Of a stretch of 64,000 nt of DNA, positions 5,376-57,354 are shown one piece after another. The notes under the pieces were generated by a model. It was not told the DNA's origin. It saw only the letters and a list, made by a program, of their open reading frames with translations, and made no database searches. How positions within the stretch are numbered: the stretch's first letter is position 1; every line of letters starts with the position of its first letter. Made by a program: the position numbers and the translations under genes. Source of the stretch: a virus; IMG/VR virus record IMGVR_UViG_3300036851_000218, positions 17,402-81,401 of that record; one strand, written 5' to 3'.

Positions 5376-5383
5376 GGACTATA

Positions 5384-6458: not shown

Positions 6459-6524
6459 AGTAATAGGATTTGTTATCGTCCTTGTAGTATATTTTCTTAT
6501 TAAATTCTATCGATAGGCGGTAAC

Positions 6525-8483: not shown

Positions 8484-8489
8484 GATAAT

Positions 8490-18265: not shown

Positions 18266-18294
18266 TTGACAATTCCCTTACGCTGTGCTATAAT
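18266..18294 (+). promoter_or_regulatory. Consensus sigma70 promoter
   Basis: TTGACA-17-TATAAT with extended -10 TG. Confidence 0.8.
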
Positions 18295-18324: not shown

Positions 18325-18840
18325 ATGGTTAGCGAAAACAACGGAAATATTTTCGACCAACTCGGTCAACGTGGTCTGTCAGCCTTTCTGACAGGTTTTA
18401 TTCTGGTAGTATTGTATCTGATCGCGGCTGCAACAGGCCGTAACCCGCTGGAACTTCCAGTAGCCGAAGACGGCGTGACCGTCATCACCCCTGAGTTTAT
18501 CCTCAGTATGCTCGGCCCTGCCGTAATGCTGGTCTACACGCTGGCGAAACTCTTTAAGAGTATTACCACCCGTGTTGCCCTGCAAGCCCTGGCATCGGCT
18601 CAAGCGATTGATCCAGGCAACGTTATCGCACTGCTGAAAATCCGTGAATTCTGGATTACGGTTGTGACGACTGTGTTTGCTGGACTGATGATGTTCAACC
18701 TGCGCTTTTGGGAAGAAGGTCAAGAAGCCACCGTCATTGACGTTATTGTAAATATGATTATGGCATTCATGGCTACCCTGCAAAGCAGCTACTCACAGCG
18801 TCCCGCCGGAGCGACTATCCAGATTGTCGAAGCTGATTAG
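18325..18840 (+). CDS. Four-TM membrane protein, holin-like
   Basis: Four hydrophobic segments; LKIREFW resembles the KSRKFW holin motif; strong RBS. Confidence 0.5.
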   Translation: MVSENNGNIFDQLGQRGLSAFLTGFILVVLYLIAAATGRNPLELPVAEDGVTVITPEFILSMLGPAVMLVYTLAKLFKSITTRVALQALASAQAIDPGNVIALLKIREFWITVVTTVFAGLMMFNLRFWEEGQEATVIDVIVNMIMAFMATLQSSYSQRPAGATIQIVEAD

Positions 18841-30300: not shown

Positions 30301-33300
30301 CTGTCTAGTTCTGATAGCGCCTGAATGAAATCACCAATTCCAGCTAATGGTGCAGTTAAAGTTTCCAGGCCAAGTGAAACCAAGTTGCTAACGAAGTCGA
30401 ATATACCTTGCAACACGTCCTGGAAAGTAGCTACGTTTTCTGAGCCTTCTGATAATGTATTACCAGAGAAGATGTCAACAACGGTTTGTATCGCTTCTCC
30501 TATTTTAGAGAAGATCGTACCGATGTTGTCAAAGATGGTCGTTTCATTATCGTTCAGGAAGAAATCGCGGATGTTATCAATCGCTCCCTGGAAGGCGGTC
30601 TTTAATGTCTCCTCCGCGTTGGTTGTATCCAGATTAAGCAGATCACCGATGGTCAAGAAACCATCCATCACTGCATCCGCAAGACCCTGTAGAATGTCAG
30701 TAGCAATACCAGCAAACTTAGCAGCGGGGTTGTCACCTAAGAATTCGCTTATAGCTGTGCCAACACCATTTAAAATTGTTTGGCCTAGAGAAGTAAAGCT
30801 ATCAAATCCGAGTAGTCCGGCTATACCATCTAACGCAAAACTCAACAGTCCGCTTATCACTTCGGCAAGCTGTTGGATTATATTGGCGTTAGGGGTTAAT
30901 TTAATATCGAAAACGTTGGCTAGTAAGTCTTGGATGACTTTGCCGATTGTTTCTCCGATGTTTCCCGCTTGATCTAAAGCGCCGGAGAAATCTCCTGCAA
31001 ACAATAATCGGAAGAATTCTGCAAATTGAGATACCAAATTACCGACGAAATCAAATATAGACTTGAAATCGATTGATCGGATCAAGTCTCTTAATGGTAG
31101 AATGATGTTGTCGCTTAAGAACTTTAAGCCAGCCGACAATGTGTTCAGAACATTTGTAACAACGTCCAGCAAGTTAAACTCAGCTATGGCTTGCCCCCCA
31201 CCTGGGAATAGGGCTGCGAACAAATCGCCAAACAAACCAACTACGTTACTGACTAAATTGCCAAGCGTTTCAACGAACAGAATGATTGGTTCGACACCTG
31301 ATCCGAAAGACTTACGGATTGCAGTAGCTAGATCATCACCTGCCAGTAAATTAAACAGCGTGTCTACTATACCACCGAAGAGGCCAGTGAGTACCCGTTC
31401 GACTTCGCGGAATACGTCACCAATTTCAGTCAAGCCCAGGAAGTCGAACAACGCTGTAGCCAGTTTTCCAGGTGTGAACAGGAAACTGAATAAACTCGTC
31501 AGGAAACTGCTGATGCCTTCACGGTTGTTGAGTATTAAAGTCTTTACGCCTTCAATAGCTCTGCCGATTAAGGAAGCAATTGCTTCACCGATCTTACCAG
31601 CGTCTAATAGTTTTATTTCATTGACCAGATCAACCCCAAACAAACCCTGAATAGTTTGCAGAGCCAATGATCCAATCTTAGAGAAACCAGCCGTCAAGGA
31701 TTGTTGGGCAAAAGCCAGGGCTTGATCGATCCCACCACCGCTTGTTAAGATAGTGAAGAAGCCAGCGGCGGCATTACCGATTTGAGTGAACGCACCTTTT
31801 AACTGATTTAACCCGCTGCGGAGATTCCCAAACAGAACTCTGACGTTATCGCCTGTCGCTTCAAGTCCTGATTTATCTAACAGGAATTTAATCAAGGGGT
31901 TGGCAGCAAAACTGTCTGCGCTCGTTTGACTTAGAATACCGTTCTGGAAGAAGCCAGCGAACAGGCTAATTGCACTGCCCACTCTGTTCAAGTTAGCTGC
32001 AAAAGTTTTAGCAGGGGCGGCTAAGCCATTAAAAATATTACTAAACGTTTGACCAACTGACTCTAAACTGGCATCCCCACCACCAAACACGATACCAAGT
32101 AAATTACTGATAGACGTAGCGACGTTACCAACAGCAGAAAACACTAGCCCCAATGAGTCTTTCAAAGCGGTAAGAGCATCGGATGCTCCACCTACATTAG
32201 TAGAGAATATTTTTATTAAAGATCGGAAACCGGAAGCCAGTGCCGTCAAGATCAACACTAGAGGACCGGCAATCACAGCGAAAGCTGCTAAGCCCCCTAG
32301 AAACGCCAAGAAGCTACCGAGGGCAGTTGCCAATATCGACAAAACTCCGGTAAATGTTAATAGCGGAGTCACAACCCCTAAGATAGCCGCACCGAATGTT
32401 ATGAACCCACCTGTTATAACTAACGCCGTTCCAAGTATAGATGCCAAAGCTGCACCGAATGTAGCAGCGGTAGCAGCGGTAGCCAACAGTTCACCGTCAA
32501 TGGTTAATAGGGTATTAACAAACGCCAACATAACATTTGCTAGGGGACGGAAAATCGTATCAATCAGGGGCAGGAATACGTTCTTTAATAGTGTTTCAAA
32601 CGAACCCTTAATCTGGTCAACCGTAGCGCCGAACGTATCTAATAATTGCTGCGCTCGTTCGGCAGCAGTGGGGAAACGTCCAGTCTCATCAATGAAGTTT
32701 TGGATAGCGTCTGTACCTTCACCAATCAGAATGGCAGCACCTTGCTGACCAAATGTTCCAAAGATTGTCTGTATGGCTTCAAAATTTTGTTGCTGTGTAC
32801 GTGTAATTTCTAATGTAATTCGTTCTGCTTCGGATTGGCTTCCTGTAATTTCAGCAATGACAGCAGCGGCGTTGGCTTGAACCTGTGTTAGTTCACCAAC
32901 TTTTGCGTTAGCCTTATCTGTATTGAGTGCGCCAGTTACTAGGCCGTCGTTGTACTGAATAATCTGAGCCGACGCTTTAGCATAGGCTTTAGTGGCTGCG
33001 TCCAGCCGAGTAGATTGTTCGTCGGTCAAATTGCTAGTGCTGATTGTTACTGTTTTAGTTTCAGTAAACGATTTGTTTATATCGTTAATAATATCATTTA
33101 AGCTGCGGAAGTTTCCTTGCTGGTCAACTAGCGAAACACCTAGTTCGTTCAACTTACCTTTGACGGCTTCCGTTGGGCGAGTTAAATTAGACAGCAAAGA
33201 ACGTAATTGTGTTCCGGCCTCTGCACCGCGAATTCCACGATCTTCAAATAAACCAAGGACAGCTACCGTCTCTTCCATTGTCAAGCCAAATTGTGTCGCC

Positions 33301-35303
33301 AGAGGACCGACATTGGCTAACCCCGCACCCAGGCTCTCAACTGATGCAGTAGAGTTGTCCGCCGCAGCCGATAAGATGTCTGCTACAACTGCGGTATTAT
33401 CAAAGCTAGAGACCACACCTTCACGAAGTTCCGCAAATGAAGAAACTGCCTGGATAACGATACGACTGATATTTTGAATGTCTCCGCTTTCGCTTAAAGC
33501 CGTCAGATCAGCAATCGGAGACACTGCACCTTGAAGGTCGCCAACACCCAATCCTGCTTTTTGCAAATCAATGATGGCTTTTAAGGCTTCGTTAGCCGAC
33601 AGCGGGTATTTGATACCGATAGCATCTGACAAATCCAGGACGGTCTTTAATTGATCCTCTGACAAATCACCGAACACTTGTGCGCGGTTAGCCAGATCAT
33701 CGAATTCCGTCGCTATAGCGAAACCTTGTGACCCCGTTATTGCATCCAAGCCAAAGCTATTAATCAGGTTCGTCCCGAAACCTGTCAAAGACGATCCAAT
33801 ACCTTTAATCTTGGTTACTAAGTTATTCAGAATTTGAGTAACGCGGGTATCGATTGTAACAAAAGTTTGGATGAAACTAGAGGAGAATTTAGCTAACAAC
33901 ACCGCCGGATTTAAATCGCCCAGGAATACCCTAGCGATAGTTTTAGCGATTTGTATTTTAAAGAATTCGTCTAGTAGGCTTCTACCGAAATGCGTACCGA
34001 TGCCACCACCAGCTTTACCCGCTTGTTGTTTTAGCGCGTCGAACCCTTGAGAACTAAATATTTGTCCTAAACCTTTAAGTGCATCCGCAGCATTCTTATT
34101 TACTTTCAAGCCGCTGAGTTCTTTAAAGGCTCGGATAACGTTCCGTAAACTCTCAACCGTTTTATTACTAATCCCGCCGCTAGCTTTTTCATCATCTATT
34201 TCTGACAGAGATCGGAAGATAGCACCTACGCCTTGAAAGGCTTCGCCCACGCCACCTAAATTAGCACCTCTAATTCCTTTTAGTTGTCGTAGAATATCAA
34301 CTACAAACTTAACTCGATCCGATAAGACTTTCGTTATTGATTTTGATTTTCCAACATTCTTTATATCGATGCCCTTAAATACTGCATCGAACAAAGATGC
34401 TACACCAGAGAACGCAGTACCCAACGCTTTTAGTTTTTCCGTATTACCTGCGAACCGACTAAGAACGTTGAAACCTAAAACCAAACCAGTCAACAGCGCG
34501 GCTAGCTTCTTTGAGTTACCGACATCTATCTTGTCGATATGTCGGAATAGGCCGGACATACCGATACCCAGGCGTTCCAACGTTAGTGACAACTCTCGAA
34601 TAGTGTTGTTACCAGGAAGTCTTTTAGAGATTGCACCAACTAAACCAAGTACCGTTTGTAAGCTGAGTAGGAACGCCCCTAGTTTTGCCGATGATCCGAG
34701 TTTAACTTTACTCAGGCTGTCGAACAACTTTTTAATACCTGCTCCAAGACTACCGATAGCTTTGACAACAGGGGTGACATCTTCAATGGTGCTAAAACGC
34801 GAAAGCTGCGTTAAGCCAGATAATATCTTAGCGAAGTTTGCTTCTTGGACACTGGCAGAACTTAACTTAGAGAATGCTTCCCCTAATTTGGTAAGATTCT
34901 TAATAACTTTACCGACATCTGGCAGCTTACTGCTATCAGACAGAATCGAAAGCGCCTTTGCAATATTATTGAAAGGCTTAATATCAATCGCAGACATTTT
35001 CGCTAGCGCAGCCGATAGCTCAGTGAAGCCTTGGACTGTAGAAGATTTAAAATTAAGCTGCGACAGCTTTTCCAGATTTTCAATTAACTTAGCTATCTGA
35101 TTAATTTTAGCACGGCTAATGACATCCAGCAGCTTGGTTAAATTATCTACACCGTCAAACTTAAATTCAATCTTGGCTGAACGTTTACGAAGTATTTCAG
35201 TTGTGTTTGAAACTTTTGTTAGGCGGGTATCAATCTGCTCGATAACACCGAGGAGTCGTTTAAAGACTTTATCATCAAGCGTTAACTCTGTCTTTTGAGG
35301 CAT
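27366..35303 (-). CDS. Tail tape measure protein (TP901-type core)
   Basis: 2645 aa, helical, Ala/Gly/Leu-rich; GIRGAEAGTQLRSLL..L..PT and LGVSLVDQQGNFRSL motifs. Confidence 0.93.
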   Translation of the reverse strand: MPQKTELTLDDKVFKRLLGVIEQIDTRLTKVSNTTEILRKRSAKIEFKFDGVDNLTKLLDVISRAKINQIAKLIENLEKLSQLNFKSSTVQGFTELSAALAKMSAIDIKPFNNIAKALSILSDSSKLPDVGKVIKNLTKLGEAFSKLSSASVQEANFAKILSGLTQLSRFSTIEDVTPVVKAIGSLGAGIKKLFDSLSKVKLGSSAKLGAFLLSLQTVLGLVGAISKRLPGNNTIRELSLTLERLGIGMSGLFRHIDKIDVGNSKKLAALLTGLVLGFNVLSRFAGNTEKLKALGTAFSGVASLFDAVFKGIDIKNVGKSKSITKVLSDRVKFVVDILRQLKGIRGANLGGVGEAFQGVGAIFRSLSEIDDEKASGGISNKTVESLRNVIRAFKELSGLKVNKNAADALKGLGQIFSSQGFDALKQQAGKAGGGIGTHFGRSLLDEFFKIQIAKTIARVFLGDLNPAVLLAKFSSSFIQTFVTIDTRVTQILNNLVTKIKGIGSSLTGFGTNLINSFGLDAITGSQGFAIATEFDDLANRAQVFGDLSEDQLKTVLDLSDAIGIKYPLSANEALKAIIDLQKAGLGVGDLQGAVSPIADLTALSESGDIQNISRIVIQAVSSFAELREGVVSSFDNTAVVADILSAAADNSTASVESLGAGLANVGPLATQFGLTMEETVAVLGLFEDRGIRGAEAGTQLRSLLSNLTRPTEAVKGKLNELGVSLVDQQGNFRSLNDIINDINKSFTETKTVTISTSNLTDEQSTRLDAATKAYAKASAQIIQYNDGLVTGALNTDKANAKVGELTQVQANAAAVIAEITGSQSEAERITLEITRTQQQNFEAIQTIFGTFGQQGAAILIGEGTDAIQNFIDETGRFPTAAERAQQLLDTFGATVDQIKGSFETLLKNVFLPLIDTIFRPLANVMLAFVNTLLTIDGELLATAATAATFGAALASILGTALVITGGFITFGAAILGVVTPLLTFTGVLSILATALGSFLAFLGGLAAFAVIAGPLVLILTALASGFRSLIKIFSTNVGGASDALTALKDSLGLVFSAVGNVATSISNLLGIVFGGGDASLESVGQTFSNIFNGLAAPAKTFAANLNRVGSAISLFAGFFQNGILSQTSADSFAANPLIKFLLDKSGLEATGDNVRVLFGNLRSGLNQLKGAFTQIGNAAAGFFTILTSGGGIDQALAFAQQSLTAGFSKIGSLALQTIQGLFGVDLVNEIKLLDAGKIGEAIASLIGRAIEGVKTLILNNREGISSFLTSLFSFLFTPGKLATALFDFLGLTEIGDVFREVERVLTGLFGGIVDTLFNLLAGDDLATAIRKSFGSGVEPIILFVETLGNLVSNVVGLFGDLFAALFPGGGQAIAEFNLLDVVTNVLNTLSAGLKFLSDNIILPLRDLIRSIDFKSIFDFVGNLVSQFAEFFRLLFAGDFSGALDQAGNIGETIGKVIQDLLANVFDIKLTPNANIIQQLAEVISGLLSFALDGIAGLLGFDSFTSLGQTILNGVGTAISEFLGDNPAAKFAGIATDILQGLADAVMDGFLTIGDLLNLDTTNAEETLKTAFQGAIDNIRDFFLNDNETTIFDNIGTIFSKIGEAIQTVVDIFSGNTLSEGSENVATFQDVLQGIFDFVSNLVSLGLETLTAPLAGIGDFIQALSELDSNKIGIIAAAIAGIGGTLVLLNPAVAAGISSVVSSLLRFGGLASIVLTIKNIAENGAILVDAIDSLLDLDVASAAGKLVDFGLSVATGITFDILGLFGIDTIFGQTEADVRSTVEKLAGGVDTLLVNVGNGIINFINGVKGVIEGIRDTIDRVIQIATPFISVIGTIIFSPVILFIKAVQSFAELPQEKKDKIAVVFTAIAVALALYNGQAILAGIGTVVSFIGTLAGVGGGAAAAGAGALASKVTVLATALGSFAKFLAGTVVPIGIILLAIASAINNADKLFDVFFNIISLIGSIISLDLTATFDSLGGIFSSIIDFIGSTVLDAVFTIAEFFGITEIAGKTKDEFILILGQLVFTVKSSFIAVGQSLSTFFTQVFNDLGLKLNILGADIELAVSDAAARIRTIGSTNPEDDPFFKAAAVFDPKTFSIDNLSAAVGDSTISQDDLDRFSRKNAGLILSALQTSLVDETQFIDTTEFGKVLGQLDLSGSVDDFAKNIVLSGDQELKNRFFTEIGALLAAPGDQRIITQDQANAIIGAIVTEVQAGTLPSDEALNILNLLPLGGEGQLSAEQREAAIKQINDIVAKYQALVDEGAALQDQTLIVDPDVEIVPGNKGGGADFTSGLEAAILGPEQAPLTPTVPVSPFLIFSDPTQTKDDFITKAEEAIAGAGGSEPITPEIPLAPTFVGIESEEDVDALVLNFQTLNDNILIAKTSFDEFATKINDNITNLNLLSTTVTTTSGTFTTETTNIQTVWTTLNDFLTNSLNTINGGLRRIPDGLRAILSTLTLINPLVSAQLVLLQTAFMNSSTSIARSLEVVIGKLKGLRVILDEVLGKLATVGASDVGGGSGTGVAGGLAEGGPVFPGIFEILEKNEPEILFQNGRAFLLSPGGGAVRPALPTAGIPTFGGIPATQNVPNGAIGSGSNSFSIQEGDINITIQGNNLPGEVLAAQVRDLVREEQSNRDIKIRERLRTSGRS

Positions 35304-39106: not shown

Positions 39107-39262
39107 CTATTCCAATCGCAGATCGAACAATAACGCGATACCAGCTACGAAAGCCAGAAATGCTGTGACTGCCGGAGGAATTACAATTCCAGCTAATCCA
39201 GCAGAAGCGATAGCGAATACTATCAAAAACAAGGCCAGGAGTATCTTTGCAAGTTTAGTCAT
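39107..39262 (-). CDS. Small two-TM membrane protein (51 aa, absent from the ORF track)
   Basis: MTKLAKILLALFLIVFAIASAGLAGIVIPPAVTAFLAFVAGIALLFDLRLE; AGGAG RBS; fills the gap between neighbours. Confidence 0.7.
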   Translation of the reverse strand: MTKLAKILLALFLIVFAIASAGLAGIVIPPAVTAFLAFVAGIALLFDLRLE

Positions 39263-39271
39263 CTTCATCTC

Positions 39272-42716: not shown

Positions 42717-44141
42717 TTACAGCGGCGTTAGCAGCGGTGTACCGCTACCACCCTGAATACCGTCATAAGCGTAGAAATCTGGCGACCAGAAGTTCGCGCC
42801 TTCATTTTCCGCCGACAGCAGGGTAGCTACTGCAACGTTGTTGATACGAGCCTGGAACGGCTGTGCGTAGGAGGCCAAGCGACCACGCGCCTCAGCATAG
42901 TATTGGAAGCACTTGTTGTTTTCCATCAGCCAGCCAGCACGGACGAGGCCACCATTGACGGTGAACACATCTTCTGTACCGTTGGTTGGGTAATCCAGAG
43001 CGCCCCAATTGACGTACTGTTGTTCCAGCAGGGTGATGCCATTAGCACGGCGGGTCAGGATAAAGATGTCACCGGCTACGCCGCCAGCTTCTTCGTCCGT
43101 ACCTGGGTTGATGGTGGCATTGTTGCCCATATTTTCGTCAGGGACAACCGCAATCGGCGTACCGTCAACGTCAATGAAGCCGTATCCGATTCCACCTTGC
43201 ATAATCCGGCTGCGTTCCGCCAAGAAATCACGGTAGGTCATCTGACCAGCGAAGTTGTTGGTCACAAAGCCGACGTTCCCGCCCGAAGCGTGAGCATCAG
43301 CAATGTAGCTCCACATACCCGCAGGCATAACCACAACCATGTCGTTCTGAGCAACGCCCCAACGACGAGCCTGCAAACGAGCGCGCAGTTTACGAACCAC
43401 TGCACGGATCAATGTCAGGATAGCCACCGGATCAGTAACACCAGCACCATTCACAACCAGCGGGTTAGCCCAATGTGGAACGCCAGGACCGACCAAGTGA
43501 GACTGAACATATCCTGGGGCAATAACGGTATCCAGACCGTCGTACTCCATAACAGAGTTTGAACGATCACCGTTAACAATCAGGTAGTTCATGTGCTGCT
43601 GCATAACCATCAACGCACGGGCAACAGCCCAATCTGCGTCATTGTCGAGAACTGCGCCCAAGCTGTTACCGCGAACGGTGTAGATGGGTGAATTCTCATA
43701 GTCGCGCATTCCGAAGTCATCAACATGGAGTTTCGGGCTGGTAAAGCTCCACTGGCCTTCCTCGGTCTGGTATTCGAAACCTGACCAAACAGCCGAAGGA
43801 CCGTAACCGCATTCCGAAATGTCGATGGTGCGCAGGTATTCCGCATAGGTGTCTGAACCGTCAAACCCTTCGGGAGCAACCCATTCCAGGTGGGCTACCG
43901 TCGGGAAACGGAAATCAACAGCACGGGTGGGAATCCACTGCAACAGGGGTGAGCCTGTATCGACTGCCATGCTGATAATATCATCAGCGATAAGCGAAAA
44001 CGGGCCGTTCTGATACAGAAGGCCGGATGTTGGGTGATCTCCTTGCAGGGTATCTTTAGCGTGAAATGCAAGTTTAGCCTTGATTTCGTCTACCGACACA
44101 CCAGCTTTATCAGCCAACATTTTTAAATACTGTTCATTCAT
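42717..44141 (-). CDS. Major capsid protein
   Basis: 474 aa directly after the protease/scaffold gene; IVNGD...EYDGL and VDGTPIAVVPD motifs consistent with the HK97 fold. Confidence 0.8.
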   Translation of the reverse strand: MNEQYLKMLADKAGVSVDEIKAKLAFHAKDTLQGDHPTSGLLYQNGPFSLIADDIISMAVDTGSPLLQWIPTRAVDFRFPTVAHLEWVAPEGFDGSDTYAEYLRTIDISECGYGPSAVWSGFEYQTEEGQWSFTSPKLHVDDFGMRDYENSPIYTVRGNSLGAVLDNDADWAVARALMVMQQHMNYLIVNGDRSNSVMEYDGLDTVIAPGYVQSHLVGPGVPHWANPLVVNGAGVTDPVAILTLIRAVVRKLRARLQARRWGVAQNDMVVVMPAGMWSYIADAHASGGNVGFVTNNFAGQMTYRDFLAERSRIMQGGIGYGFIDVDGTPIAVVPDENMGNNATINPGTDEEAGGVAGDIFILTRRANGITLLEQQYVNWGALDYPTNGTEDVFTVNGGLVRAGWLMENNKCFQYYAEARGRLASYAQPFQARINNVAVATLLSAENEGANFWSPDFYAYDGIQGGSGTPLLTPL

Positions 44142-44147
44142 TTTTAA

Positions 44148-45131
44148 TTAGCTCCTTTTCCCTGGTGCATGTGCAGGGACACCACTTTTAGTTCTGCGGA
44201 TATTCCGTGCATCTTCTTCCGCGTCACGCTCTTCCTCAGTCTGACGGGCAAGGTCGTCGGCAATAACTTGGGCTTCGATTTTCAGCTTAGCCGCTACGTG
44301 GGTTGAAAATGATTTCAAACCGTTATTGACATTGGCAATACCAGTAGCCAATACACGATGTTCCTCCACCGATTTAGCCTGATTGTCTGTAACCAGCGCA
44401 GTCAGGGTAGCAACTTCGGCTTTCAAGGCTTTCACCAAGTCCAAAACTGCTTTGATTTCACCGGACAGACCTTCGCTAACCAACTCTTCCTGGTCAGCTT
44501 CACCTTCATTGAACAGTTCATCGATGTCACCTGAATTGTCAGCACCGATCAGTTCTTCCAGTGACGGAAGTTCTTCTTCGGTGTTTTCCTGATTTTCACC
44601 CAGGTCTTCATCTTCGAGTTTAAAGTTCTTCATAACTTCTGCTACCGCCTTTGGGTTAGCGGGAGTAGTCGTCAACGAGATTTCCGCTGGCATCCATTGT
44701 TTAATGAGGCCAGTTGCTCCGTCGATTTCTACTGCCGTTTGAACAGGTTGCGAACTTGCACCTAGCAGATTTTTCTCTGCCAACGCTGCCAACATATCGT
44801 GGTAGCGATAGGCGCGGCGCACTTCAATATCCCACAACTGACCATCATCCGTATCCTGGTAGAATTTAGCATAGCCTAACAGTTTCTTTCCTACCCGATC
44901 ATTCAGAGCATGGTCGTAGAAAGCGTAAATTGTGTCAACCACAACTTCACCGTTTTCATTCTTACCATAGTCAGTCGCAGACTTATCAAAGCGTTCACCT
45001 TGCAAGTCCACACCCCCTAAGTAATCCGGCCCACCATAAGGAATGCCTACGACACGAAACGTTGTAGCGTCATCGGTCTGTTTGACAATCTTGGCATTGG
45101 GCGTAAAGATTCTAGGAAGTGTTTCTTTCAT
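44148..45131 (-). CDS. Prohead maturation protease fused to a scaffold-like region
   Basis: DLQGERF, FYDH, LGASS, EISLTTTPANP; acidic and coiled-coil C-terminal half. Confidence 0.85.
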   Translation of the reverse strand: MKETLPRIFTPNAKIVKQTDDATTFRVVGIPYGGPDYLGGVDLQGERFDKSATDYGKNENGEVVVDTIYAFYDHALNDRVGKKLLGYAKFYQDTDDGQLWDIEVRRAYRYHDMLAALAEKNLLGASSQPVQTAVEIDGATGLIKQWMPAEISLTTTPANPKAVAEVMKNFKLEDEDLGENQENTEEELPSLEELIGADNSGDIDELFNEGEADQEELVSEGLSGEIKAVLDLVKALKAEVATLTALVTDNQAKSVEEHRVLATGIANVNNGLKSFSTHVAAKLKIEAQVIADDLARQTEEERDAEEDARNIRRTKSGVPAHAPGKRS

Positions 45132-45178
45132 TTACCGATCCTTTCTTAATTTGAACTATTAACAAGCCCCGTAGCTTG

Positions 45179-46963
45179 TTACACAGGAGTGAGTTTATCT
45201 GCCATGAAATCGCAAATTGTCTGCTCGTCAAGGGTTAGCGGCTGATCGGATACGACCTTATTTAGTGCCGTTTCTATTTGGTCAGGGGTATACAACGGCA
45301 TTTCCCCACTGTATTGTGCGATCAGTTCTCTTTTGAAACCAAAAAAGTTTTTTAGGGTATTACGATTATTCAGTTGTACTTGAGCATTTGCGGCTTCGTA
45401 GGCATCTTCATCACTGACTTGGGGTTCATCTTCGACCTCCATCTTAGATAATTTTTCATTTAGAATAGCTTTATAGGTGGTAAAGACTTTAAATCGGCGT
45501 TCCCGTATGTTTCCATGACTATCGACTGATACTTCATCGTAATCTGGTACGGGTTCGGAATATGCGGATTTCGATGGCGATTCTTGCGGGGGCTGAGAAC
45601 CGTTCTCTATTTCCTCACCTTCCTTGGGGACAGGGAATACAGCTAGGCTTTCTGCACTAGCCATATCCGAAGTGCCTGTACCTGTGGCAATCAATTCCAG
45701 GTCATTTGGTAGCACATGGATCGACTGCATCCAGGACAGGAGGGCTTCTAAACTCAATCCGGCTTGAAATACGGTGGCGACTTTTTCGAGCGCCTCGGTT
45801 GTCAACTTGAGGACTTGGGCGTTGGCAACCATACTGCTGGTATCGACTTCTTCAATAAAATTGAATTGAAGTCGGCTGCGTCCACTGGAAAACGGTTTGA
45901 GGATGCCGGATTGGTTAATTTGCCGTTCTTCACTGCGGACGTATGAGGATGGCCCTTTTTGCAACTGTCGCTGTTCCTGAATTTCTTCAAGGGCGCGGTT
46001 CGTTGTTCTTTCGGAGTTCCAGAAATGCCGGAGAGATAACCCCAACGCGGCTGAAATCTGGTTCACATAATCGAACACAAATTCTTCGCGTTCAAAGCCT
46101 TCCGGTATTTTAGAAAGTCCGAGCGTTGTGATTTGATCTTCAACGCTAGTGCCAGTCAGGTTGTTCATTTCTACAATCGGGATACCGACTTTTGAGGGGT
46201 CTTCTCCTGAGTGGAGAGCAATTTGGGTCAGCACAGCCTCTTCAATCGAGGCGGCTAAGTCGGAACTTCCAACGATGATAATATCGCGGATACGTCTGCC
46301 ATCAGTAGATGCCATATCGTGTTCGCGGATTAACCAAGCAAGGTTGGCGGTTGGCATAACGTAGGCTATCGGGGAAATAAATAAGCCTGAACCACCGAGG
46401 GGCAGAGTGTGGTTTAAATACACATCTCCCGCCCTGAACTTACGCATGTCACCCGTATACGTCCAAACCTTATCCGTCGGACGAACTTCACCATTACGCT
46501 CTGGACGGGTGAATTGCAACATAGTGGGGTCAAGATATTCCAGGAAACCATTCGGTTCAGCCTTGGTTTTACCCGTTACTGTGAATGATGTTCTACCCAC
46601 TACTGTGAAGTCTAAAGAACGTCGTTTGAGGAATTCTTCAAATCCGTACTGTGGCAATCCGGTAGTTACATCAACTACTTTAGCGCGGTTTAACCAGTCA
46701 ACTGCCCGTTTAGCGGGTAAAGGTTTACCAACTATCTGCCACTCACGACCTGAACTTAATTGTTGAAATATTTGAATAGCCCCAGGCAGAATGGGCATTT
46801 TCCAAATCTGAACATCACGAAGATTTTGCGCGTAGGCTAACATCTGAGATGGAGCAATACGGCGAGGACCACCAGGCCATATTATAGACTTTCCCATGAT
46901 GTCCATACTTTTACGTAAGGCGACAGATTTTATGTTGTCGTCACCAAGTAATTTACTGTGCAT
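45179..46963 (-). CDS. Portal protein
   Basis: 594 aa upstream of the protease; LEYLDP, ISPI, QISAALGL motifs. Confidence 0.75.
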   Translation of the reverse strand: MHSKLLGDDNIKSVALRKSMDIMGKSIIWPGGPRRIAPSQMLAYAQNLRDVQIWKMPILPGAIQIFQQLSSGREWQIVGKPLPAKRAVDWLNRAKVVDVTTGLPQYGFEEFLKRRSLDFTVVGRTSFTVTGKTKAEPNGFLEYLDPTMLQFTRPERNGEVRPTDKVWTYTGDMRKFRAGDVYLNHTLPLGGSGLFISPIAYVMPTANLAWLIREHDMASTDGRRIRDIIIVGSSDLAASIEEAVLTQIALHSGEDPSKVGIPIVEMNNLTGTSVEDQITTLGLSKIPEGFEREEFVFDYVNQISAALGLSLRHFWNSERTTNRALEEIQEQRQLQKGPSSYVRSEERQINQSGILKPFSSGRSRLQFNFIEEVDTSSMVANAQVLKLTTEALEKVATVFQAGLSLEALLSWMQSIHVLPNDLELIATGTGTSDMASAESLAVFPVPKEGEEIENGSQPPQESPSKSAYSEPVPDYDEVSVDSHGNIRERRFKVFTTYKAILNEKLSKMEVEDEPQVSDEDAYEAANAQVQLNNRNTLKNFFGFKRELIAQYSGEMPLYTPDQIETALNKVVSDQPLTLDEQTICDFMADKLTPV

Positions 46964-48320
46964 TTGTAATCCAGTCCGCTAAATGACGAATTAAATCCGA
47001 TAGCCAATAAAGAGTAGCAGCTACCGCTTCTCTGGCAGTCACGGGGATATGAGGCGGCGGAACGGGGTAAGTAAACTCAGACGTTGGGGGCGGGTCAAAT
47101 CCGATAACATCCCGACGAGAATAACCGAATATGCTTGTACCGGAAGCAGATTTTATCGGATACCAATCGCCAAACTCATCGTCATCGATGTAGAGAACCG
47201 GCTGACCGTCTCGAACTGCCCCGACAACACTAGATGTGATGCTTCGGGATGCCCGAACATGTACCGCAGCATTGGATCGAACAATACCTTTCAGCCAACG
47301 AGGATCACGGGGATCAGGGTAGACCTCTGGTACGGGATCGGGTGGGGGTGGTGGATTAGTAGGGGCGCTTGTCGATTCCAACCGCTTGTGAAGTCCGAAG
47401 GCTTTGGACAGATCAAATGCAGGCCAATTGTCATCGTCGCTCCATGCGAAGAAGAGTAAGGCTTCAACATCGGTATACAGAACTGTTTCAGCCCATTTCG
47501 CTTGGAAATATAAAGCATCTTGTGCATCCTCCCATTGTGGAAACCAGCGCAGCCATTGATTGACTAAAGTACGCCACCCATTAATAGACACATACGGATG
47601 CGTTTTGACCAGATTGTTGAGCCAATTACCGATGTCACCCAGGAAATCAAAACCCCACTCTGTTATAATAATACGTGGCTTGGGGATGTTGTTTTTACTG
47701 CAATAATCCAATACAAACTTATATCGCCCCATATGGAAGCGAGTTATATTGGATGCGTTCATAGGCCAGTTTTCAACAGGAATGAAATTGGGCTTAACTT
47801 TGTCAATAACCTGATCGGGTGTCCCACCGATTAAGCCGCTGGTAATAACTCCACCTGCATATTCATGTAGACCAATAACAAACAAGTTTCGGTACAATGC
47901 AGCCAGTTCGAAAATACGTTTACAGCGGAACAGTTGTTCGGGAGAGGGATACCCGACACTAAAATTCAAAACTACTAGGTGAACATTGCGGTTAACGCAT
48001 AACTCCATTAACTCAACATGCCACTTAACAAGTTCATCACTTAGCCCAGGTTCATTTGACGTATACAGATAAACGCCGTTAGCAGCTAAGTGCTGACGTT
48101 TATCAAGCCACTGAGTGGGAGTTTCTTTTAGCCAAATCTCTTCATCGGGGTAGTCACGAACAATCACAACACATCTAGGGAAACGCGCTTTAAATTGTTG
48201 CGCTATTTCACCTTGAAAGCTGTAAAACAACATAGCCGACGGATTGAGTCGGCTTGAATGGTCAAATAATGTATTTTTATCTCTGGTGGAAAGGACGTTG
48301 TAACCGATTTTACTTTGCAT
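46953..48320 (-). CDS. Endolysin-like clan GH-A glycoside hydrolase + Pro linker + SH3b domain
   Basis: SNEP acid/base, GLHEY, IIITEWG nucleophile; PPPPPDP linker; VHVR..S....VVG...W...GY SH3b pattern. Confidence 0.7.
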   Translation of the reverse strand: MQSKIGYNVLSTRDKNTLFDHSSRLNPSAMLFYSFQGEIAQQFKARFPRCVVIVRDYPDEEIWLKETPTQWLDKRQHLAANGVYLYTSNEPGLSDELVKWHVELMELCVNRNVHLVVLNFSVGYPSPEQLFRCKRIFELAALYRNLFVIGLHEYAGGVITSGLIGGTPDQVIDKVKPNFIPVENWPMNASNITRFHMGRYKFVLDYCSKNNIPKPRIIITEWGFDFLGDIGNWLNNLVKTHPYVSINGWRTLVNQWLRWFPQWEDAQDALYFQAKWAETVLYTDVEALLFFAWSDDDNWPAFDLSKAFGLHKRLESTSAPTNPPPPPDPVPEVYPDPRDPRWLKGIVRSNAAVHVRASRSITSSVVGAVRDGQPVLYIDDDEFGDWYPIKSASGTSIFGYSRRDVIGFDPPPTSEFTYPVPPPHIPVTAREAVAATLYWLSDLIRHLADWITNAQ

Positions 48321-48630
48321 TCACAGGCTCGGTAATAGTAAACATTTGCTCAAAGGGGATTAATAAAGACACCCAACCATGACAACCTCTTTCGGTTGTA
48401 GATTGTATCCACACCCATTCGTATTTACGCATTAGATCGTAGGTACGGGTTTGTGGATAAAGCCAAACCTCTTCACCTTCATCCACCTTAAATACAATAT
48501 CATAACCAACCCCGCGACCATAGCGAACATTGGATTGTCCCCGCGCAGGGTGGATAACTGCCCGAACCGGATTAGCACGTAAGCCATGATCGGGCGGATA
48601 GAATACGGGTGAATTAGCTTGTAGACTCAA
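48310..48630 (-). CDS. Stand-alone SH3b-like protein
   Basis: NVRYGRGVGYDIV...YEWVWI...GWVS. Confidence 0.7.
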   Translation of the reverse strand: MSLQANSPVFYPPDHGLRANPVRAVIHPARGQSNVRYGRGVGYDIVFKVDEGEEVWLYPQTRTYDLMRKYEWVWIQSTTERGCHGWVSLLIPFEQMFTITEPVNAK

Positions 48631-49423
48631 CTTTGGACATCTCCGATGTACTTGTTTTGTTTAGTATGAAATCACCGACATCACGAAAGGTAACAATCAC
48701 GCGGGTAACTTTGTGATTCTCCAAACTGACGACAGGTTCAGCGTCGATAAGCAACCAGATTACCGCAGAGTCAGCCGTTCGCTTCACGCCCAACAAATTT
48801 TGTCGGGAGGGCATTGCGGTCTGTAGTGCAAATACGGTGGGGATTTCACCTGGGGGTACAGCAGAGCCATCAGAAAACATAAACCAACCAATTCGGTCAG
48901 CCAATGTCGAATTTATAATATCTTCGGCCTTAGCCCCCAATATAGCCAGCGCGTCTTTATTACAGGACGTAATTCGACCTTCGGGGTTGATAACCAGAAC
49001 ACCTTTTCGCAAAGATGCCAGATCACGGGAATTCAGAGCATCGATAATAGCGGTCTGCGTATTTGTCAATTGACCGGAGATAGCCGTTACCTGCTGACCA
49101 AGTGCCGCCGTCAACGACGTTGCCAAATTATTAAAATCTGCACCAAAGCGTTCGAACAGCGTATTTTGACTTTCATTAGAAGCTGTAACCGATTCGGCTG
49201 TGACCTTCATAGCGTCGGTGGCTTCTGCCATCTTGTCACCCAACGATATGGCTTTGGATGTCAGTTCAAAAGACTTTTCATCTTTATCCATCGTTCGATC
49301 AAGGAACTTGCTAAAAGAACGAAGCCCCTGCCAAAACAGGAAACAGATGAACAAACATACCACACCAATACCGATTTTATCGCCGTTTGCGATAATAGCT
49401 TCTACGATCTTCGTTAAATCCAT
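48614..49423 (-). CDS. Holin-like single-TM protein with coiled coil and C-terminal PAS domain
   Basis: TM helix at ~aa 17-34, helical linker, PAS signature GVLVINPEGRITSCN..A..ILG...EDII...IWLLIDAEPV...VIVTFRDV. Confidence 0.75.
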   Translation of the reverse strand: MDLTKIVEAIIANGDKIGIGVVCLFICFLFWQGLRSFSKFLDRTMDKDEKSFELTSKAISLGDKMAEATDAMKVTAESVTASNESQNTLFERFGADFNNLATSLTAALGQQVTAISGQLTNTQTAIIDALNSRDLASLRKGVLVINPEGRITSCNKDALAILGAKAEDIINSTLADRIGWFMFSDGSAVPPGEIPTVFALQTAMPSRQNLLGVKRTADSAVIWLLIDAEPVVSLENHKVTRVIVTFRDVGDFILNKTSTSEMSKVESTS

Positions 49424-49443
49424 GTGTTCTTATCTCCTATGGT

Positions 49444-49472
49444 ATTATACCACAATATGTTCTATTTGTAAA
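49444..49472 (-). promoter_or_regulatory. Sigma70-type promoter of the lysis cassette
   Basis: TTTACA-17-TATAAT with extended -10 TG, followed by an AGGAG RBS. Confidence 0.7.
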
Positions 49473-49489
49473 GGACTTACATTTCAAAA

Positions 49490-51100
49490 CTATAACAAAT
49501 AGGGGCTTTTGATCCGGCGGACTGTCGAACCTTGTATAGAAGCCCCTAAATGTTGGACGACGATAGCTACAGCGTCTAAGCAGTCATCATGACGTGCTAC
49601 ACCGAAGTTCATAGCTTCGGATGCGAAGAAACGATATGCGTCACAGTCTTTGTTAAAGAACACACGGCCTGTATTACATAGTCTGGCTAAGTTTTCAGTA
49701 CGGTGGCCTTTGTCACCAATCGGCGGGATAGGGTTAATCGGTAGATGTGGGTATTTGTCAGATATAGTAAATTTCATTACGGTCTGGAAAGCGACTTTCT
49801 CGATTAAGACTTGGTTGACTTTACCCCATTTATTCGCTACGTTATTTACAAACCCTGCCATCTGTTCGACAGTCTGTTCGGGGGTAGTTTTGATACGTAG
49901 CATGTCCAAAATAAATAAGTTTCGATCTTTGTCTGCGCCGACAGCAGCGAATACCGTAAAGTCTGCGTCGGATTTAATAGAGATGGCGAAGTCTGTACCA
50001 ACATGGATTGATACCAGATCGTCCGGTTTAAGTGTTTCGGGTAGGGGCTTCATTAAGCCGTCGGGCAGAAACTTGGCATTGACAAACGCCGTTGGGTCAT
50101 TTAAATACATGACTTTGAACAACGTATCGTTGTCCATTTCAACCCGTTTGCGTTCCAGCTTCTCAACAGGCCAGTATTCAGGCCAGTAAGACATCGGTGT
50201 ACCATCGGGCGCATAACGCAGGGCGGAGATTTCAATGGTGTGCCAGGATGGATTATTTTTTAATTTTTCAGGTACGTCTTCGGGCATCCAGCGCGTACCA
50301 ATATTAATAACCTTAGCCTCTTCTTTAACGCATGGAATAAGTGTGCGGATAAGATACTCGTAAACTTCATCTTGCAGTTCGGCTTTCAGGTAGGCTTCGT
50401 CAATAATGTCGTCCAGAACCATCAGGCCAGAAATACGTCTACCAATAATGCCTTTACCGCCCGAACCGGACACATACAGGGTCGGGTCTTTCAGTGAACC
50501 GTGACGGGTCAGGATCGAACGCCACGCATTGTAGGACAATGACTTGGCTTTCATGGTTTTAGGATCAAACAGACCGTCGGCATAGATGGAGAATTCCTGG
50601 ATGGTGTTGCGCTGGCGTTCATCGACCTTAATCCAGGGGAATACGTTGTGGAAACGGGTGTTATCGCGGAAAATACCGCGAATCATCTCAAGACGGGCTT
50701 CGGCTTGCTTAGCGGACACCGAAATAATGACATTCGATGTCAGGGGGAAACGGGCAATAAACCAAGCCATCGAATACATTGAAATGGTGGTTTTAGCACT
50801 ATCGCGGGGTGCGATAATGTTCAAACGGAACTTATTATCTTTTTTACCCTGTTCGGAAAAGTCAAAGATCGACTGCATCCACAGGCGGTGGTGTTTGGCT
50901 GGCGCTAAACCCGTTACGTACTCAATAAAGAAAGCCGGATCAACCCGACTTTTATCAATCCACCACTTTTCCGCCCGAAGTACCGTTACAAAACGTTTTT
51001 CACGGGGTCTTCCAGTTGAAGGGTCTAATGGAACAGCAGGAATAGGGGGTTCACCAACATACGGGGTCTTTGCGTCAGACGGGCTAAGTATCTTCGTCAT
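49490..51100 (-). CDS. terL: Terminase large subunit
   Basis: APRDSAKT Walker A, GRRISGLMVLDD Walker B, IGTRW, GTDFA...DFT, HDDCLDA nuclease motif. Confidence 0.93.
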   Translation of the reverse strand: MTKILSPSDAKTPYVGEPPIPAVPLDPSTGRPREKRFVTVLRAEKWWIDKSRVDPAFFIEYVTGLAPAKHHRLWMQSIFDFSEQGKKDNKFRLNIIAPRDSAKTTISMYSMAWFIARFPLTSNVIISVSAKQAEARLEMIRGIFRDNTRFHNVFPWIKVDERQRNTIQEFSIYADGLFDPKTMKAKSLSYNAWRSILTRHGSLKDPTLYVSGSGGKGIIGRRISGLMVLDDIIDEAYLKAELQDEVYEYLIRTLIPCVKEEAKVINIGTRWMPEDVPEKLKNNPSWHTIEISALRYAPDGTPMSYWPEYWPVEKLERKRVEMDNDTLFKVMYLNDPTAFVNAKFLPDGLMKPLPETLKPDDLVSIHVGTDFAISIKSDADFTVFAAVGADKDRNLFILDMLRIKTTPEQTVEQMAGFVNNVANKWGKVNQVLIEKVAFQTVMKFTISDKYPHLPINPIPPIGDKGHRTENLARLCNTGRVFFNKDCDAYRFFASEAMNFGVARHDDCLDAVAIVVQHLGASIQGSTVRRIKSPYLL

Positions 51101-51686
51101 TGGAGAGGTCTAATTTCTCAAGCTGCTTCTCGACAGCTTCAATACGTGAGGCCATACCGCCTTCTGACGGCAATTTGATGGGGGAAGCGGCATAAATATC
51201 TTCTAGCTGGATCGTCTCGCCCGACATCCAATCTTCTTGGAGGTTTTCGAGTGCCGTAGCATAGTGAGGGCTGTTTCCAGTGATCGTTTGTTCGAATTTT
51301 TCGACTTCGATAGTTATGGCTTCGCTGTTATCTTGTTGGGGACGAATGGTTTTTGCCCATTCAATTTCGAGTTTGGTTATATCGGTGAGGGCTTTGATTG
51401 CGCGGAGGTCGCCGTTTGCTACAGCAGGCCAGATTTGTTTGAGGGCAAATTCGAGACGGCCTACGTTGATGAGCGCCATGTTTTCCGTTAATTCCATCAT
51501 GCGGAAGCTGAAATCACTTTTCTGGTTGTTTAAGTGATACTCAACATTTTGGCGGGTTACACCCAGGGCTTCGGCTATTTCCGAAGTAGGCATCCCGCCA
51601 AGATACATATCAAGAATGTCGTTTACGGTCTTTACGCGCTCCAACGCCTGTCGGTCTTCGTTTGCTTTTTGGTGTTGAACGGGCAT
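51084..51686 (-). CDS. terS: Terminase small subunit (HTH)
   Basis: GMPTSEIAEALGVTRQNV HTH; directly upstream of terL; AAGGA RBS at start 51686. Confidence 0.7.
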   Translation of the reverse strand: MPVQHQKANEDRQALERVKTVNDILDMYLGGMPTSEIAEALGVTRQNVEYHLNNQKSDFSFRMMELTENMALINVGRLEFALKQIWPAVANGDLRAIKALTDITKLEIEWAKTIRPQQDNSEAITIEVEKFEQTITGNSPHYATALENLQEDWMSGETIQLEDIYAASPIKLPSEGGMASRIEAVEKQLEKLDLSNDEDT

Positions 51687-51969
51687 ATTGTTTCCTTGTG
51701 GACATGTATACTTCGAGGGCGATTGCGCCCCGAACGGTGAAATCTGCCTGTCCATCGGGGGTAAAGTACATACACCCTTTGCGCACCAGCCAGTAGATTT
51801 TATACTTATCGCGGAGATCACCTTTTTCTACATGGTACATGAGTTTCTGTGCCTTGTAGCTAACAGGTTCATCCAGTTCGGCTTGCATTTCCTGAATCGG
51901 ATTAGCGGGGGTTACTTCGGGGATAGATTTGAGTCCTTCAATTTGTTCGTCAGTGAAATCGTGGCTCAT
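51610..51969 (-). CDS. Hypothetical protein
   Basis: 119-aa ORF, TAATG-coupled. Confidence 0.55.
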   Translation of the reverse strand: MSHDFTDEQIEGLKSIPEVTPANPIQEMQAELDEPVSYKAQKLMYHVEKGDLRDKYKIYWLVRKGCMYFTPDGQADFTVRGAIALEVYMSTRKQYARSTPKSKRRPTGVGARKDRKRHS

Positions 51970-52397
51970 TAAATAGCATCCTCTGTGTAAACATCGATTA
52001 AACGTAAAGTCGCTTTAGATACGCGGTGCGCCAGCTTTTGGTAGGGCAGCGATACAACATTGCCCAGGCTGGTGCGCCAATTAGTCGGTTGGTTGCTGTT
52101 CCCTGGTCGCGGGCCGAGCCATTCGATGCCCCATTCCGCCGCCAATTCGTGGTAGGCCGACTCTTTCAAAACCATATTGGTTTGACAGATGCAGCCATGC
52201 TCTTTCAGATAAACAGCGCGGTAAGTTTTGTAATGTTCCTTGTTACAACCTGGATTATTACACACCCACCACGTTTTATCAAAAACCGACATGGGGGCGA
52301 CTTTGCCAGTGAAAGTCAACCCCCGCGATTGCGCCAGTTCTTCATATTCTTGCGTATTCTTAGAACTTCTACCCATTCTTCTCTCGCATCCATTCAA
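51969..52397 (-). CDS. Two-repeat zinc-ribbon-like DNA-binding protein
   Basis: Duplicated Y.ELA...G..(F/W).G..P......T.W unit with Cys/His residues. Confidence 0.55.
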   Translation of the reverse strand: MNGCERRMGRSSKNTQEYEELAQSRGLTFTGKVAPMSVFDKTWWVCNNPGCNKEHYKTYRAVYLKEHGCICQTNMVLKESAYHELAAEWGIEWLGPRPGNSNQPTNWRTSLGNVVSLPYQKLAHRVSKATLRLIDVYTEDAI

Positions 52398-52647
52398 TCC
52401 CTGCTGGATTGCGGCGGCTGTGGGCTATCTGATATAATTTTATCCACACGCTTAACTCAGGTGCGCCAACTTCGAGCAGGTGCTTAATTTCATTCAAATA
52501 AATCAAACGAGACAACTTATCATCGGGAAACAGGACTTTCAAGTTCGCTAGTATAACCTCTGATTCATCGTCATCGAAAAGAAAGTTGTCGGCTACGGTC
52601 TCCGCGCTAGGCCATACTTTATAAAAGGTATGATTATGATCCTGCAT
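52369..52647 (-). CDS. Hypothetical protein, first gene of the leftward arm
   Basis: Follows a consensus promoter. Confidence 0.55.
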   Translation of the reverse strand: MQDHNHTFYKVWPSAETVADNFLFDDDESEVILANLKVLFPDDKLSRLIYLNEIKHLLEVGAPELSVWIKLYQIAHSRRNPAGIEWMREKNG

Positions 52648-52685
52648 CTTCCCTACTTAAATATACTTGTAAATAATTATGTCAG

Positions 52686-52714
52686 ATTATATCACAATTT
52701 AACATCCATGTCAA
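52686..52714 (-). promoter_or_regulatory. Consensus sigma70 promoter for the packaging/structural arm
   Basis: TTGACA-17-TATAAT on the minus strand. Confidence 0.8.
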
Positions 52715-52870
52715 GAGCCGACTCACCCCTTTCATACACCGTCTGCACAATTTCCCTACAATGTCCTGACATCTTATATACAGAGCTTATACCATGCCGC
52801 TATAAGGGCGGACGAAGTGGATGCAGTGCGATAGCATTGTGGTGAATTGTCAAGAAATTGTTAAGATTGT

Positions 52871-53289: not shown

Positions 53290-53318
53290 TTGACTTGTAC
53301 ATATATGTGTGATATAAT
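53290..53318 (+). promoter_or_regulatory. Sigma70-type promoter
   Basis: TTGACT-17-TATAAT. Confidence 0.75.
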
Positions 53319-57138: not shown

Positions 57139-57354
57139 CTAACATCATTAGCCTTCAAATCGGTCATGCTCATGTGTTTACATATATGTAATACATATGC
57201 TTGAAATACCTATTAGCAGTCATATTAACTTATGGTCTCGAATCACTTAATAATATATTATGTTTTTCGAGACCATAGTGTCATAGAACGTACTAATAGA
57301 ACAAGATTGACACCTATGGCTTTCCCTGCTATAATCTTTACCATGATCCCCGCG
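57139..57354 (+). repeat. Long imperfect inverted repeat, copy 2
   Basis: 55-bp core at 57223-57277 is the exact reverse complement of 52943-52997. Confidence 0.9.
57307..57335 (+). promoter_or_regulatory. Consensus sigma70 promoter for the rightward early genes
   Basis: TTGACA-17-TATAAT with extended -10 TG. Confidence 0.8.

Follow-up and report, generated by a model that had tools for sequence, protein, structure and literature searches.

A PAS-domain membrane protein and its relatives

The window analysed here, 64,000 nucleotides long, is the final 64 kb of an 81.4-kb virus record (IMG/VR, IMGVR_UViG_3300036851_000218) that is rated 99% complete and belongs to a tailed phage. The one sequencing run that contains the whole stretch, and may be its source, carries the label soil metagenome. 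All positions given below are those of the window. On its minus strand, directly downstream of the gene for the large terminase subunit (49490..51100; phrog_38, E 6.3e-64), lies a gene for a 269-residue membrane protein with a PAS domain (48614..49423, including the stop codon), referred to below as the PAS protein. The gene call is based on an ATG start, Pfam matches and relatives, and a GGAGA ribosome-binding site can be read from the sequence 9 nt 5' of the ATG (49433..49437, minus strand). The PAS gene is preceded by a promoter-like site and is followed by two further genes of the same strand, encoding a stand-alone SH3b-like protein of 106 residues and an enzyme of 455 residues. An earlier interpretation, made without database searches (the sequence-only reading), had described the 269-residue open reading frame (ORF) as a holin-like membrane protein fused to a PAS sensor domain and heading a lysis cassette. 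The ORF itself is confirmed by our analysis, and position 49472, the end coordinate given in that reading, is the first base of the promoter-like site.

Hydropathy places a single transmembrane (TM) helix at residues 16-34 (49322..49378, minus strand). This is the sole hydrophobic segment of the protein (mean Kyte-Doolittle value of 1.96), with the motif NGDKIGIG at its start and the charged stretch RSFSKFLDRTMDKDEK directly after it. The charged linker that follows (residues 35-134; 49022..49321, minus strand) is the least conserved part of the chain and is probably helical: an AlphaFold2 model, built from a three-sequence alignment and poor overall (mean predicted local distance difference test value, pLDDT, of 54), draws helices at residues 16-44, 51-81 and 88-130, with low confidence in the linker (pLDDT below 50 over residues ~35-130). 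The PAS domain occupies residues 135-250 (48674..49021, minus strand) and was detected by Pfam, the family profile, Foldseek and a domain scan. In Pfam, PF13426 (PAS_9) matched residues 141-249 with 32.5 bits (gathering cut-off 27), PF00989 (PAS) scored 29.4 bits (cut-off 22.6), and PAS_4 reached 23.1 bits, which is exactly its cut-off of 23.1. The model folds residues 140-248 into strands at 140-145, 150-154, 210-213, 222-232 and 239-248 with helices between them; block-mean pLDDT is ~60-85 in this part, with two blocks at 40-52, i.e. moderate confidence only. When the model was compared with the PDB by Foldseek, 149 matches at E<=0.001 were obtained; those listed are PAS or LOV domains of sensor proteins (WalK, EcDOS, LOV), the best of them being the WalK sensor from its TM to its PAS part. 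By sequence, a PDB search with the query A1 gave no match, and one with the PAS domain gave weak N-terminal PAS matches only (CitA, E 0.017).

The PAS domain is therefore genuine, as judged by Pfam scores above the cut-offs and by listed Foldseek matches to PAS/LOV domains. Pfam revealed no kinase, HisKA/DHp, HATPase_c, GGDEF or other output domain in the protein, and the chain ends 19 residues past the PAS domain. A sensor histidine kinase was rejected as its identity, since HisKA/DHp and HATPase_c are missing and only PAS families are found. The succession of TM helix, charged residues, helical linker and PAS domain without an output domain, which had been deduced in the sequence-only reading, is thus borne out by hydropathy, Pfam and Foldseek alike.

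A word-indexed search of 5.8 billion proteins returned two full-length relatives of the PAS protein, with 52% and 49% identity. Using the family profile against 1.84 billion representative proteins, we obtained 7752 matches at E<=1e-3, 512 at E<=1e-10 and only 2 at E<=1e-30; the 512 are PAS domains that belong to long sensor proteins. Four of the 150 profile matches listed are full-length (P0003, P0004, P0044 and P0121), the others being single PAS domains in long proteins; over both searches, there are at least 5 full-length relatives, and the family is thus very small. All six family members (256-303 residues) keep the whole architecture, and 12 alignment columns are invariant, K16, I19 and G20 within the motif at the start of the TM helix among them. 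Among the six members, mean pairwise identity drops from 0.44 in the motif and TM helix to 0.22 in the linker and is back at 0.40 in the PAS domain. Because the motif and TM helix are conserved as well as the PAS domain, the membrane end would appear to do more than anchor the protein, and the suggestion that the TM segment is itself the output gains some weight from this. The helix directly before the PAS core, TQTAIIDALNSRDLA, is identical in three close members.

In GenBank phages, tblastn found no match for the PAS protein, the 455-residue enzyme or a 594-residue ORF described below, and the large terminase subunit was matched with only 21-24% identity. No relative came up in IMG/VR when the PAS protein, its residues 40-269 (A2), P0044, P0121, P0172 or the large terminase subunit served as query; a match to P0004 (L008), located at the end of a 555-residue ORF among tail-like genes, was judged spurious. 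A first metagenome scan found nothing and a second only the 1067-base fragment L002. Three matches from a scan of genome contigs with A2 (L005-L007, each in a metagenome-assembled genome, MAG) were rejected as generic PAS matches of 27-28% identity and not family members.

The kinship with cellular sensors allows another function to be considered. As a kinase-less TM-linker-PAS input half, the protein might pair with a host sensor kinase or cyclase and act as a decoy or modulator of host signalling, so that a host response would be blocked or hijacked late in infection, the neighbouring genes being merely co-transcribed. The PAS domain does match cellular multi-PAS sensors, with whole-protein E-values down to 7.9e-29 and up to four matched stretches in each, and domain scans of the 12 top matches out of the 150 listed identified nine histidine kinases (HATPase_c), one GGDEF-EAL protein and two proteins with PAS only, all 12 being PAS proteins. 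The best Foldseek row, the TM-to-PAS part of WalK, points the same way, as does the identity of the pre-PAS helix in the close members, the helix before the PAS core being a usual PAS dimer contact. A precedent may be seen in phage peptides that bind the membrane part of the host diguanylate cyclase YfiN (PMC8085984). However, a decoy would not need the conserved extracytoplasmic motif and TM helix, and one would not expect it to retain, from contig to contig, reading frames that overlap those of the SH3b-like protein and the enzyme; the gene goes with the head genes and not with the early block, and no target in a host can be named. We consider interference with host signalling an unlikely function of the PAS protein.

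Promoter, gene order and neighbouring genes

The 66-nt gap between the large terminase gene and the PAS gene contains a sigma-70-type promoter-like site, TTTACA-17-TATAAT with TGn before the -10 element (49444..49472, minus strand; 11/12 matches). In the 81.4-kb genome, 18 sites have at least 11/12 matches, four of them being perfect, versus 1.9 +/- 1.3 in 100 first-order Markov simulations of the genome. The strand of the sites is that of the gene blocks, with plus sites in plus blocks and minus sites in the minus block. As the sites exceed chance and follow the gene-block strands, the promoter of the PAS gene is credible, and the earlier claim that the gene has a promoter of its own stands. 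Other examples of such sites are found at 52714-52686 (minus), 53290-53318 (plus), 42707-42679 (minus), 36896-36868 (minus), 18266-18294 (plus) and 57307-57335 (plus). Early and late operons alike appear to run on host sigma-70-type promoters, and the one before the PAS gene is one of several dividing the late region.

With a TTG start at 48630, the gene of the 106-residue protein (48310..48630, minus strand) is overlapped by the PAS gene by 17 nt, and it overlaps in turn the gene of the 455-residue enzyme (46953..48320, minus strand) by 11 nt, in line with the overlaps described in the sequence-only reading. A further overlap of 11 nt joins the enzyme gene to the 594-residue ORF (45179..46963, minus strand; ORF call), which occupies the position of a portal gene; it has no Pfam, PHROGs or PDB match, and its identity as the portal is not confirmed. 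Since the enzyme gene overlaps this ORF, the promoter of the PAS gene would also serve the head genes. A protease/scaffold-like ORF with weak PHROG matches (44148-45131) lies in the head module, and a 474-residue ORF occupies the capsid position downstream in it.

The order of the three genes is conserved in the few relatives with readable DNA. On L002, a PAS-protein relative, of which the 58 C-terminal residues are present, is followed by a homologue of the 106-residue protein (51% identical) and then by the start of an enzyme homologue, with gene overlaps of 8 and 11 nt. Relatives of the three proteins (P0002, P0201 and P0154) are each recorded on a 4073-base contig, and this equal size suggests a third instance of the order on one contig. 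Linkage to the putative lysis genes, to which the sequence-only reading had attached importance, is thus observed on L002 and inferred for the 4073-base contig.

Small contigs of a related phage from another study (the second run, X2) span positions 44000-52800 and cover the capsid, head, enzyme, SH3b-like, PAS and terminase genes. They are mostly 90-99% identical to the window (5 of 24 records are below 90%) and carry an in-frame 3-nt insertion behind 48335; the PAS gene is ~89% identical in them. The best-supported 40 of 251 differences were listed, and among these third codon positions hold 18 of the 21 in the PAS gene at 48754-48875 and six of the seven in the enzyme gene. Such a third-position bias indicates that the PAS gene is under purifying selection and, together with the Pfam matches and the relatives, rules out a chance ORF.

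The 106-residue protein was called from its ORF, its relatives, the copy on L002 and its ESM Atlas features. It has three relatives, which makes a four-member family, and no Pfam match. Its protein language-model features score 0.95-0.96 both to viral clusters of ~100-residue proteins and to SH3_3 clusters, and this agreement with the earlier call of an SH3b protein is taken as a lead. A complex prediction for A2 and the 106-residue protein (A4), run without controls, gave a score of 0.00, which is no evidence either way.

The 455-residue enzyme, by its model (pLDDT 85.6), fold matches and alignment, consists of a barrel of glycoside hydrolase clan A (GH-A; residues 1-321), an SH3b-like module (residues ~343-409) and a C-terminal helix (residues 429-454). 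Foldseek ranks PslG, mannanases, glucuronidases and CcsZ first. VIA-align aligned 232 residues to the GH5 enzyme Cel5A (Z 15.6, root-mean-square deviation 3.4), and GH17, GH2, GH39 and PslG are within one Z unit of the GH5 endoglucanases. Across 41 sequences, N89-E90 (NEP) and E221 (ITEWG) show little or no variation, and in the model the enzyme has the features that define clan GH-A, namely the barrel, a Glu after strand 4 and a Glu on strand 7. The SH3_3 family reaches 20.6 bits in the enzyme, which is below the cut-off. The 44 relatives, one of them from an Anaerolineaceae MAG, have variable C-terminal modules that are often SH3b-looking. No Pfam family covers the catalytic part of the enzyme or of its relatives, no CAZy family could be assigned, and no match was found in the PDB by sequence; the enzyme thus defines an uncharacterised clan GH-A family with SH3b modules. 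Lysin families of Pfam and PHROGs gave no match either, and the fold matches listed are glycanases, not muramidases. By eye, the N-terminus reads as lacking a signal peptide. As modelled, the protein is probably a modular wall-directed glycosidase with a glycanase fold.

An enzyme of this kind could also act outside lysis. The enzyme and the SH3b-like protein might degrade and bind envelope polysaccharide, such as capsule, sheath or biofilm matrix, and the PAS protein might assist the two as a sensor or adaptor, through which they are controlled or localised, or might have another late function, without any permeabilisation of the membrane. The fold matches to PslG, a biofilm exopolysaccharide hydrolase, to the cellulose-synthase subunit CcsZ and to GH5/GH26 glycanases speak for such a role, and so does the location of the unit among packaging and head genes. 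Moreover, the enzyme family is ~10 times as large as the PAS family, which would make the PAS protein an optional add-on, and no holin signature was found in Pfam or PHROGs. Yet an enzyme without a signal peptide must still cross the membrane, and lysins typically have SH3b modules and a binding subunit encoded by a gene of its own.

The 55.9-kb viral contig L004 (module at 5297-9195) also argues against a role outside lysis: there, a 37%-identical enzyme homologue of 695 residues comes after tail-fibre-like genes and stands beside membrane proteins, as lysis genes often do. A 234-residue protein with one TM helix and a long helical region precedes this enzyme with an ATGA overlap, and a 192-residue ORF and then a 201-residue multi-TM ORF lie downstream. 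These four genes have the look of a lysis module with this enzyme family at its centre. The 234-residue protein shows no homology to A2 (hhalign probability of 0.1%). Unrelated one-TM helical proteins are thus found in front of the same enzyme family, which means that the position recurs, as is common for holin-type genes. Weighing both sides, we think it improbable that the three genes serve polysaccharide degradation or another late function instead of lysis.

Several other genes of the window were noted. A tape-measure-like protein of 2645 residues (27366-35303, minus strand; PhageMin_Tail, E 1.3e-35) contains several hydrophobic segments. The plus-strand replication block harbours three DNA-modification genes, at 1149-1844, 8490-9200 and 14136-15041, the types being an Eco57I/MTS-like methyltransferase, a D12 adenine methyltransferase and a Mom-like protein. 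A ClpP-type protease gene (5384-5977, plus strand; PHROG 'head maturation protease', Pfam E 3.4e-24) is found in the same block, at a great distance from the head module, which has the weak protease/scaffold-like ORF of its own.

Predicted membrane topology and the proposed role in lysis

The PAS protein is the sole TM protein of its unit. Fifteen residues precede its helix, and there is one Lys/Arg residue before the helix and four after it; the same bias is seen in 6/6 members (0-2 in the N flank, 3-6 in the C flank). Together with the cytoplasmic type of the PAS domain, this charge bias favours a predicted topology with the N-terminus outside and the C-terminus inside (N-out/C-in). A cleavable signal peptide was dismissed, the N-region being acidic with a single Lys, and so was a class III holin such as T4 T (PF11031), for which there is no Pfam match and the opposite topology is predicted by the charge bias.

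With the reverse topology, N-in/C-out, the linker and PAS domain would lie outside, as in i-spanins or T4 holin T, and the protein would be spanin-like or periplasmic. An N-terminal TM helix and long charged helices beside a lysin gene constitute the i-spanin architecture, the PAS protein has such a helix followed by long charged helices and adjoins a lysin-like gene, and charge bias is a weak predictor here. Nevertheless, the bias is C-in in 6/6 members and the PAS domain belongs to the kind found in cytoplasmic multi-PAS proteins; no spanin profile, including those of PHROGs, was matched, the next ORF has no N-terminal lipobox, and no lipoprotein partner was seen. An i-spanin of the Rz type was consequently rejected, and we regard any spanin-like or periplasmic arrangement as very improbable.

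The sequence-only reading had likened the membrane part to holins of the BhlA/UviB type. Holin, antiholin and spanin profiles of Pfam and PHROGs, however, matched neither the whole PAS protein, nor its residues 1-135, nor any of the six members, and Holin_BhlA/UviB (PF10960) gave no match with the whole protein at E<=0.1 or with residues 1-135 at E<=10. ESM Atlas scores for residues 1-135 did not exceed 0.79, which is noise level, and the trace of BhlA in them (row 20 at 0.77, with 10% of the cluster carrying the family) is not significant. BhlA/UviB holins are well under 100 residues long and have one TM helix and a short charged tail, and a 269-residue protein with a folded C-terminal domain is outside this form. 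The likeness was accordingly given up.

Of the other ORFs of the 81-kb genome, 90 were compared with Pfam (E<=0.01) and 63 with PHROGs (E<=0.001 for 55 of them, E<=0.01 for the remaining 8), and none of these matched a holin, endolysin or spanin family. By hydropathy, three consecutive ORFs of 150-171 residues on the plus strand (17305-17757, 17757-18257 and 18325-18840) have one N-terminal TM helix each. They have no family match and stand at the end of a plus-strand block, with a perfect promoter before the third, and are alternative candidates for lysis or exclusion. A 53-residue two-TM ORF between structural genes (39107-39268, minus strand) is holin-like in size and shape, also with no family match.

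From these results, a hypothesis regarding the function of the PAS protein may be put forward: it would control lysis from within the membrane and carry its own PAS sensor on the cytoplasmic side, an explanation that we favour tentatively and with appreciable doubt. The short N-terminal tail would lie outside, one helix would cross the membrane, and the linker and PAS domain would reside in the cytoplasm. The protein would be made from its own sigma-70 promoter along with the SH3b-like protein and the GH-A/SH3b glycosidase, and the latter, lacking a signal peptide, would reach the cell envelope only after the membrane is breached. The conserved motif and TM helix would join in membrane permeabilisation, alone or with another membrane protein, in the manner of the holin-like LysF1b-type proteins of actinobacteriophages, which have one TM domain and an N-out/C-in topology. 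The PAS domain would set the timing through the helical linker in response to a cytoplasmic signal such as a ligand, redox or energy state. A stricter version makes the protein a PAS-gated holin, with sensor and hole-former in one chain. In that case, the NGDKIGIG motif and TM helix would oligomerise and breach the membrane, and the PAS domain, on sensing a metabolite or cofactor, redox or energy state, would part or join the helices via the linker, so that enzyme release and cell burst would take place only in a given host state. We doubt this stricter version and judge it unlikely, giving it about half the weight of the broader hypothesis.

Counting in favour of a lysis-control protein are its place as the sole TM protein of a unit whose enzyme seems to lack a signal peptide, the absence of holin, endolysin and spanin matches among the other ORFs examined, the conservation of its membrane end, and the one-TM protein before the enzyme homologue on L004. 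A number of observations weigh against a lysis-control protein. The PAS protein resembles no holin family, whether by sequence or by profile, and at 269 residues it is ~2 times the size of the LysF1b-type proteins with which it is compared below, without their multi-TM array partners. The three-gene unit is located between the large terminase and head genes, which is not the classical position of a lysis cassette; this location in the head region and the presence of other membrane ORFs in the genome weaken the lysis role, and the real holin could be one of the four ORFs at 17305-17757, 17757-18257, 18325-18840 (plus strand) and 39107-39268. The neighbourhood could be read for one relative of the PAS protein only (L002), the three most divergent members, P0004, P0044 and P0121, not being placed. 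The fold of the enzyme is that of clan GH-A (GH5 endoglucanases, GH2 glucuronidases, GH17, PslG) and not of an endolysin family. To the best of our knowledge, no peptidoglycan-cleaving endolysin belongs to this clan; hence, the enzyme may be a depolymerase of exopolysaccharide or wall polysaccharide. If it is an endolysin, it would be the first one known from clan GH-A. Finally, 44 relatives of the enzyme versus 5 of the PAS protein and 3 of the SH3b-like protein imply that the enzyme does not generally need a PAS partner.

On balance, the lysis cassette of the sequence-only reading is plausible: gene order, overlaps and promoter are in its favour, whereas the GH-A enzyme is not a known endolysin and the unit shares its promoter with head genes. 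That interpretation as a whole is therefore partly supported.

Comparison with known systems

How large the burst is depends on the timing of lysis, which is among the main fitness traits of phages. Few ways are known in which this timing is tuned to outside information: lysis inhibition in T4 and switches that act on transcription, for instance VqmA. If the proposed function is correct, a membrane lysis protein carrying a PAS domain would provide a direct post-translational link from host physiology to the moment of lysis. Being compact and gated by a ligand or by redox state, such a membrane switch might also find application as a tool.

In order and fold of its TM helix, linker and PAS domain, the PAS protein resembles the input half of WalK-like kinases, and homologues of its PAS domain occur in multi-PAS kinases. 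It differs from them in that DHp/HisKA, HATPase_c and an extracytoplasmic sensor loop are all missing and the membrane is crossed by a single helix.

VqmA of vibriophage VP882 is a phage PAS receptor through which a host small molecule determines the timing of host killing (PMC8284805, PMC12802170). In contrast to the PAS protein, it is a soluble transcription factor with a DNA-binding output that acts in the lysogeny-lysis switch and is linked neither to a membrane nor to a lysin. It is also the nearest case returned by our literature search, in whose sources, as far as they were accessible, no PAS-bearing holin or antiholin was found.

Signal-responsive lysis timing is known for T4 holin T, which has one TM helix and a large soluble domain that receives a lysis-delaying signal. 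The T4 antiholin RI delivers this lysis-inhibition signal to T as a separate protein. The soluble domain of T is periplasmic and its topology N-in/C-out (PMC9671378). T is thus unlike the PAS protein, its periplasmic domain not being of the PAS type, and no profile match was found between the two.

A likeness of predicted topology connects the PAS protein with the LysF1b-type proteins of actinobacteriophages, which have one TM domain and are holin-like; in PHROGs, the PAS protein matched no family of the lysis category. In the phages Girr and NormanBulbieJr, where such proteins occur, deletion of LysF1b leads to severe lysis defects, as reported in PMC13056207. For ten one-TM proteins from lysis cassettes of Gordonia phages, another source (PMC9671378) gives a predicted N-out/C-in topology with 52-115 cytoplasmic residues and states that they always adjoin multi-TM proteins. 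The PAS protein likewise has a single N-terminal TM helix, a short outside tail, a predicted N-out/C-in topology and a cytoplasmic bulk, and its gene directly precedes those of the SH3b-like protein and the GH-A/SH3b enzyme, the putative lysin. LysF1b-type proteins are 79-145 residues long and have charged, unstructured cytoplasmic tails without a sensor domain (PMC9671378), whereas the PAS protein possesses ~100 helical residues and a folded PAS domain in addition.

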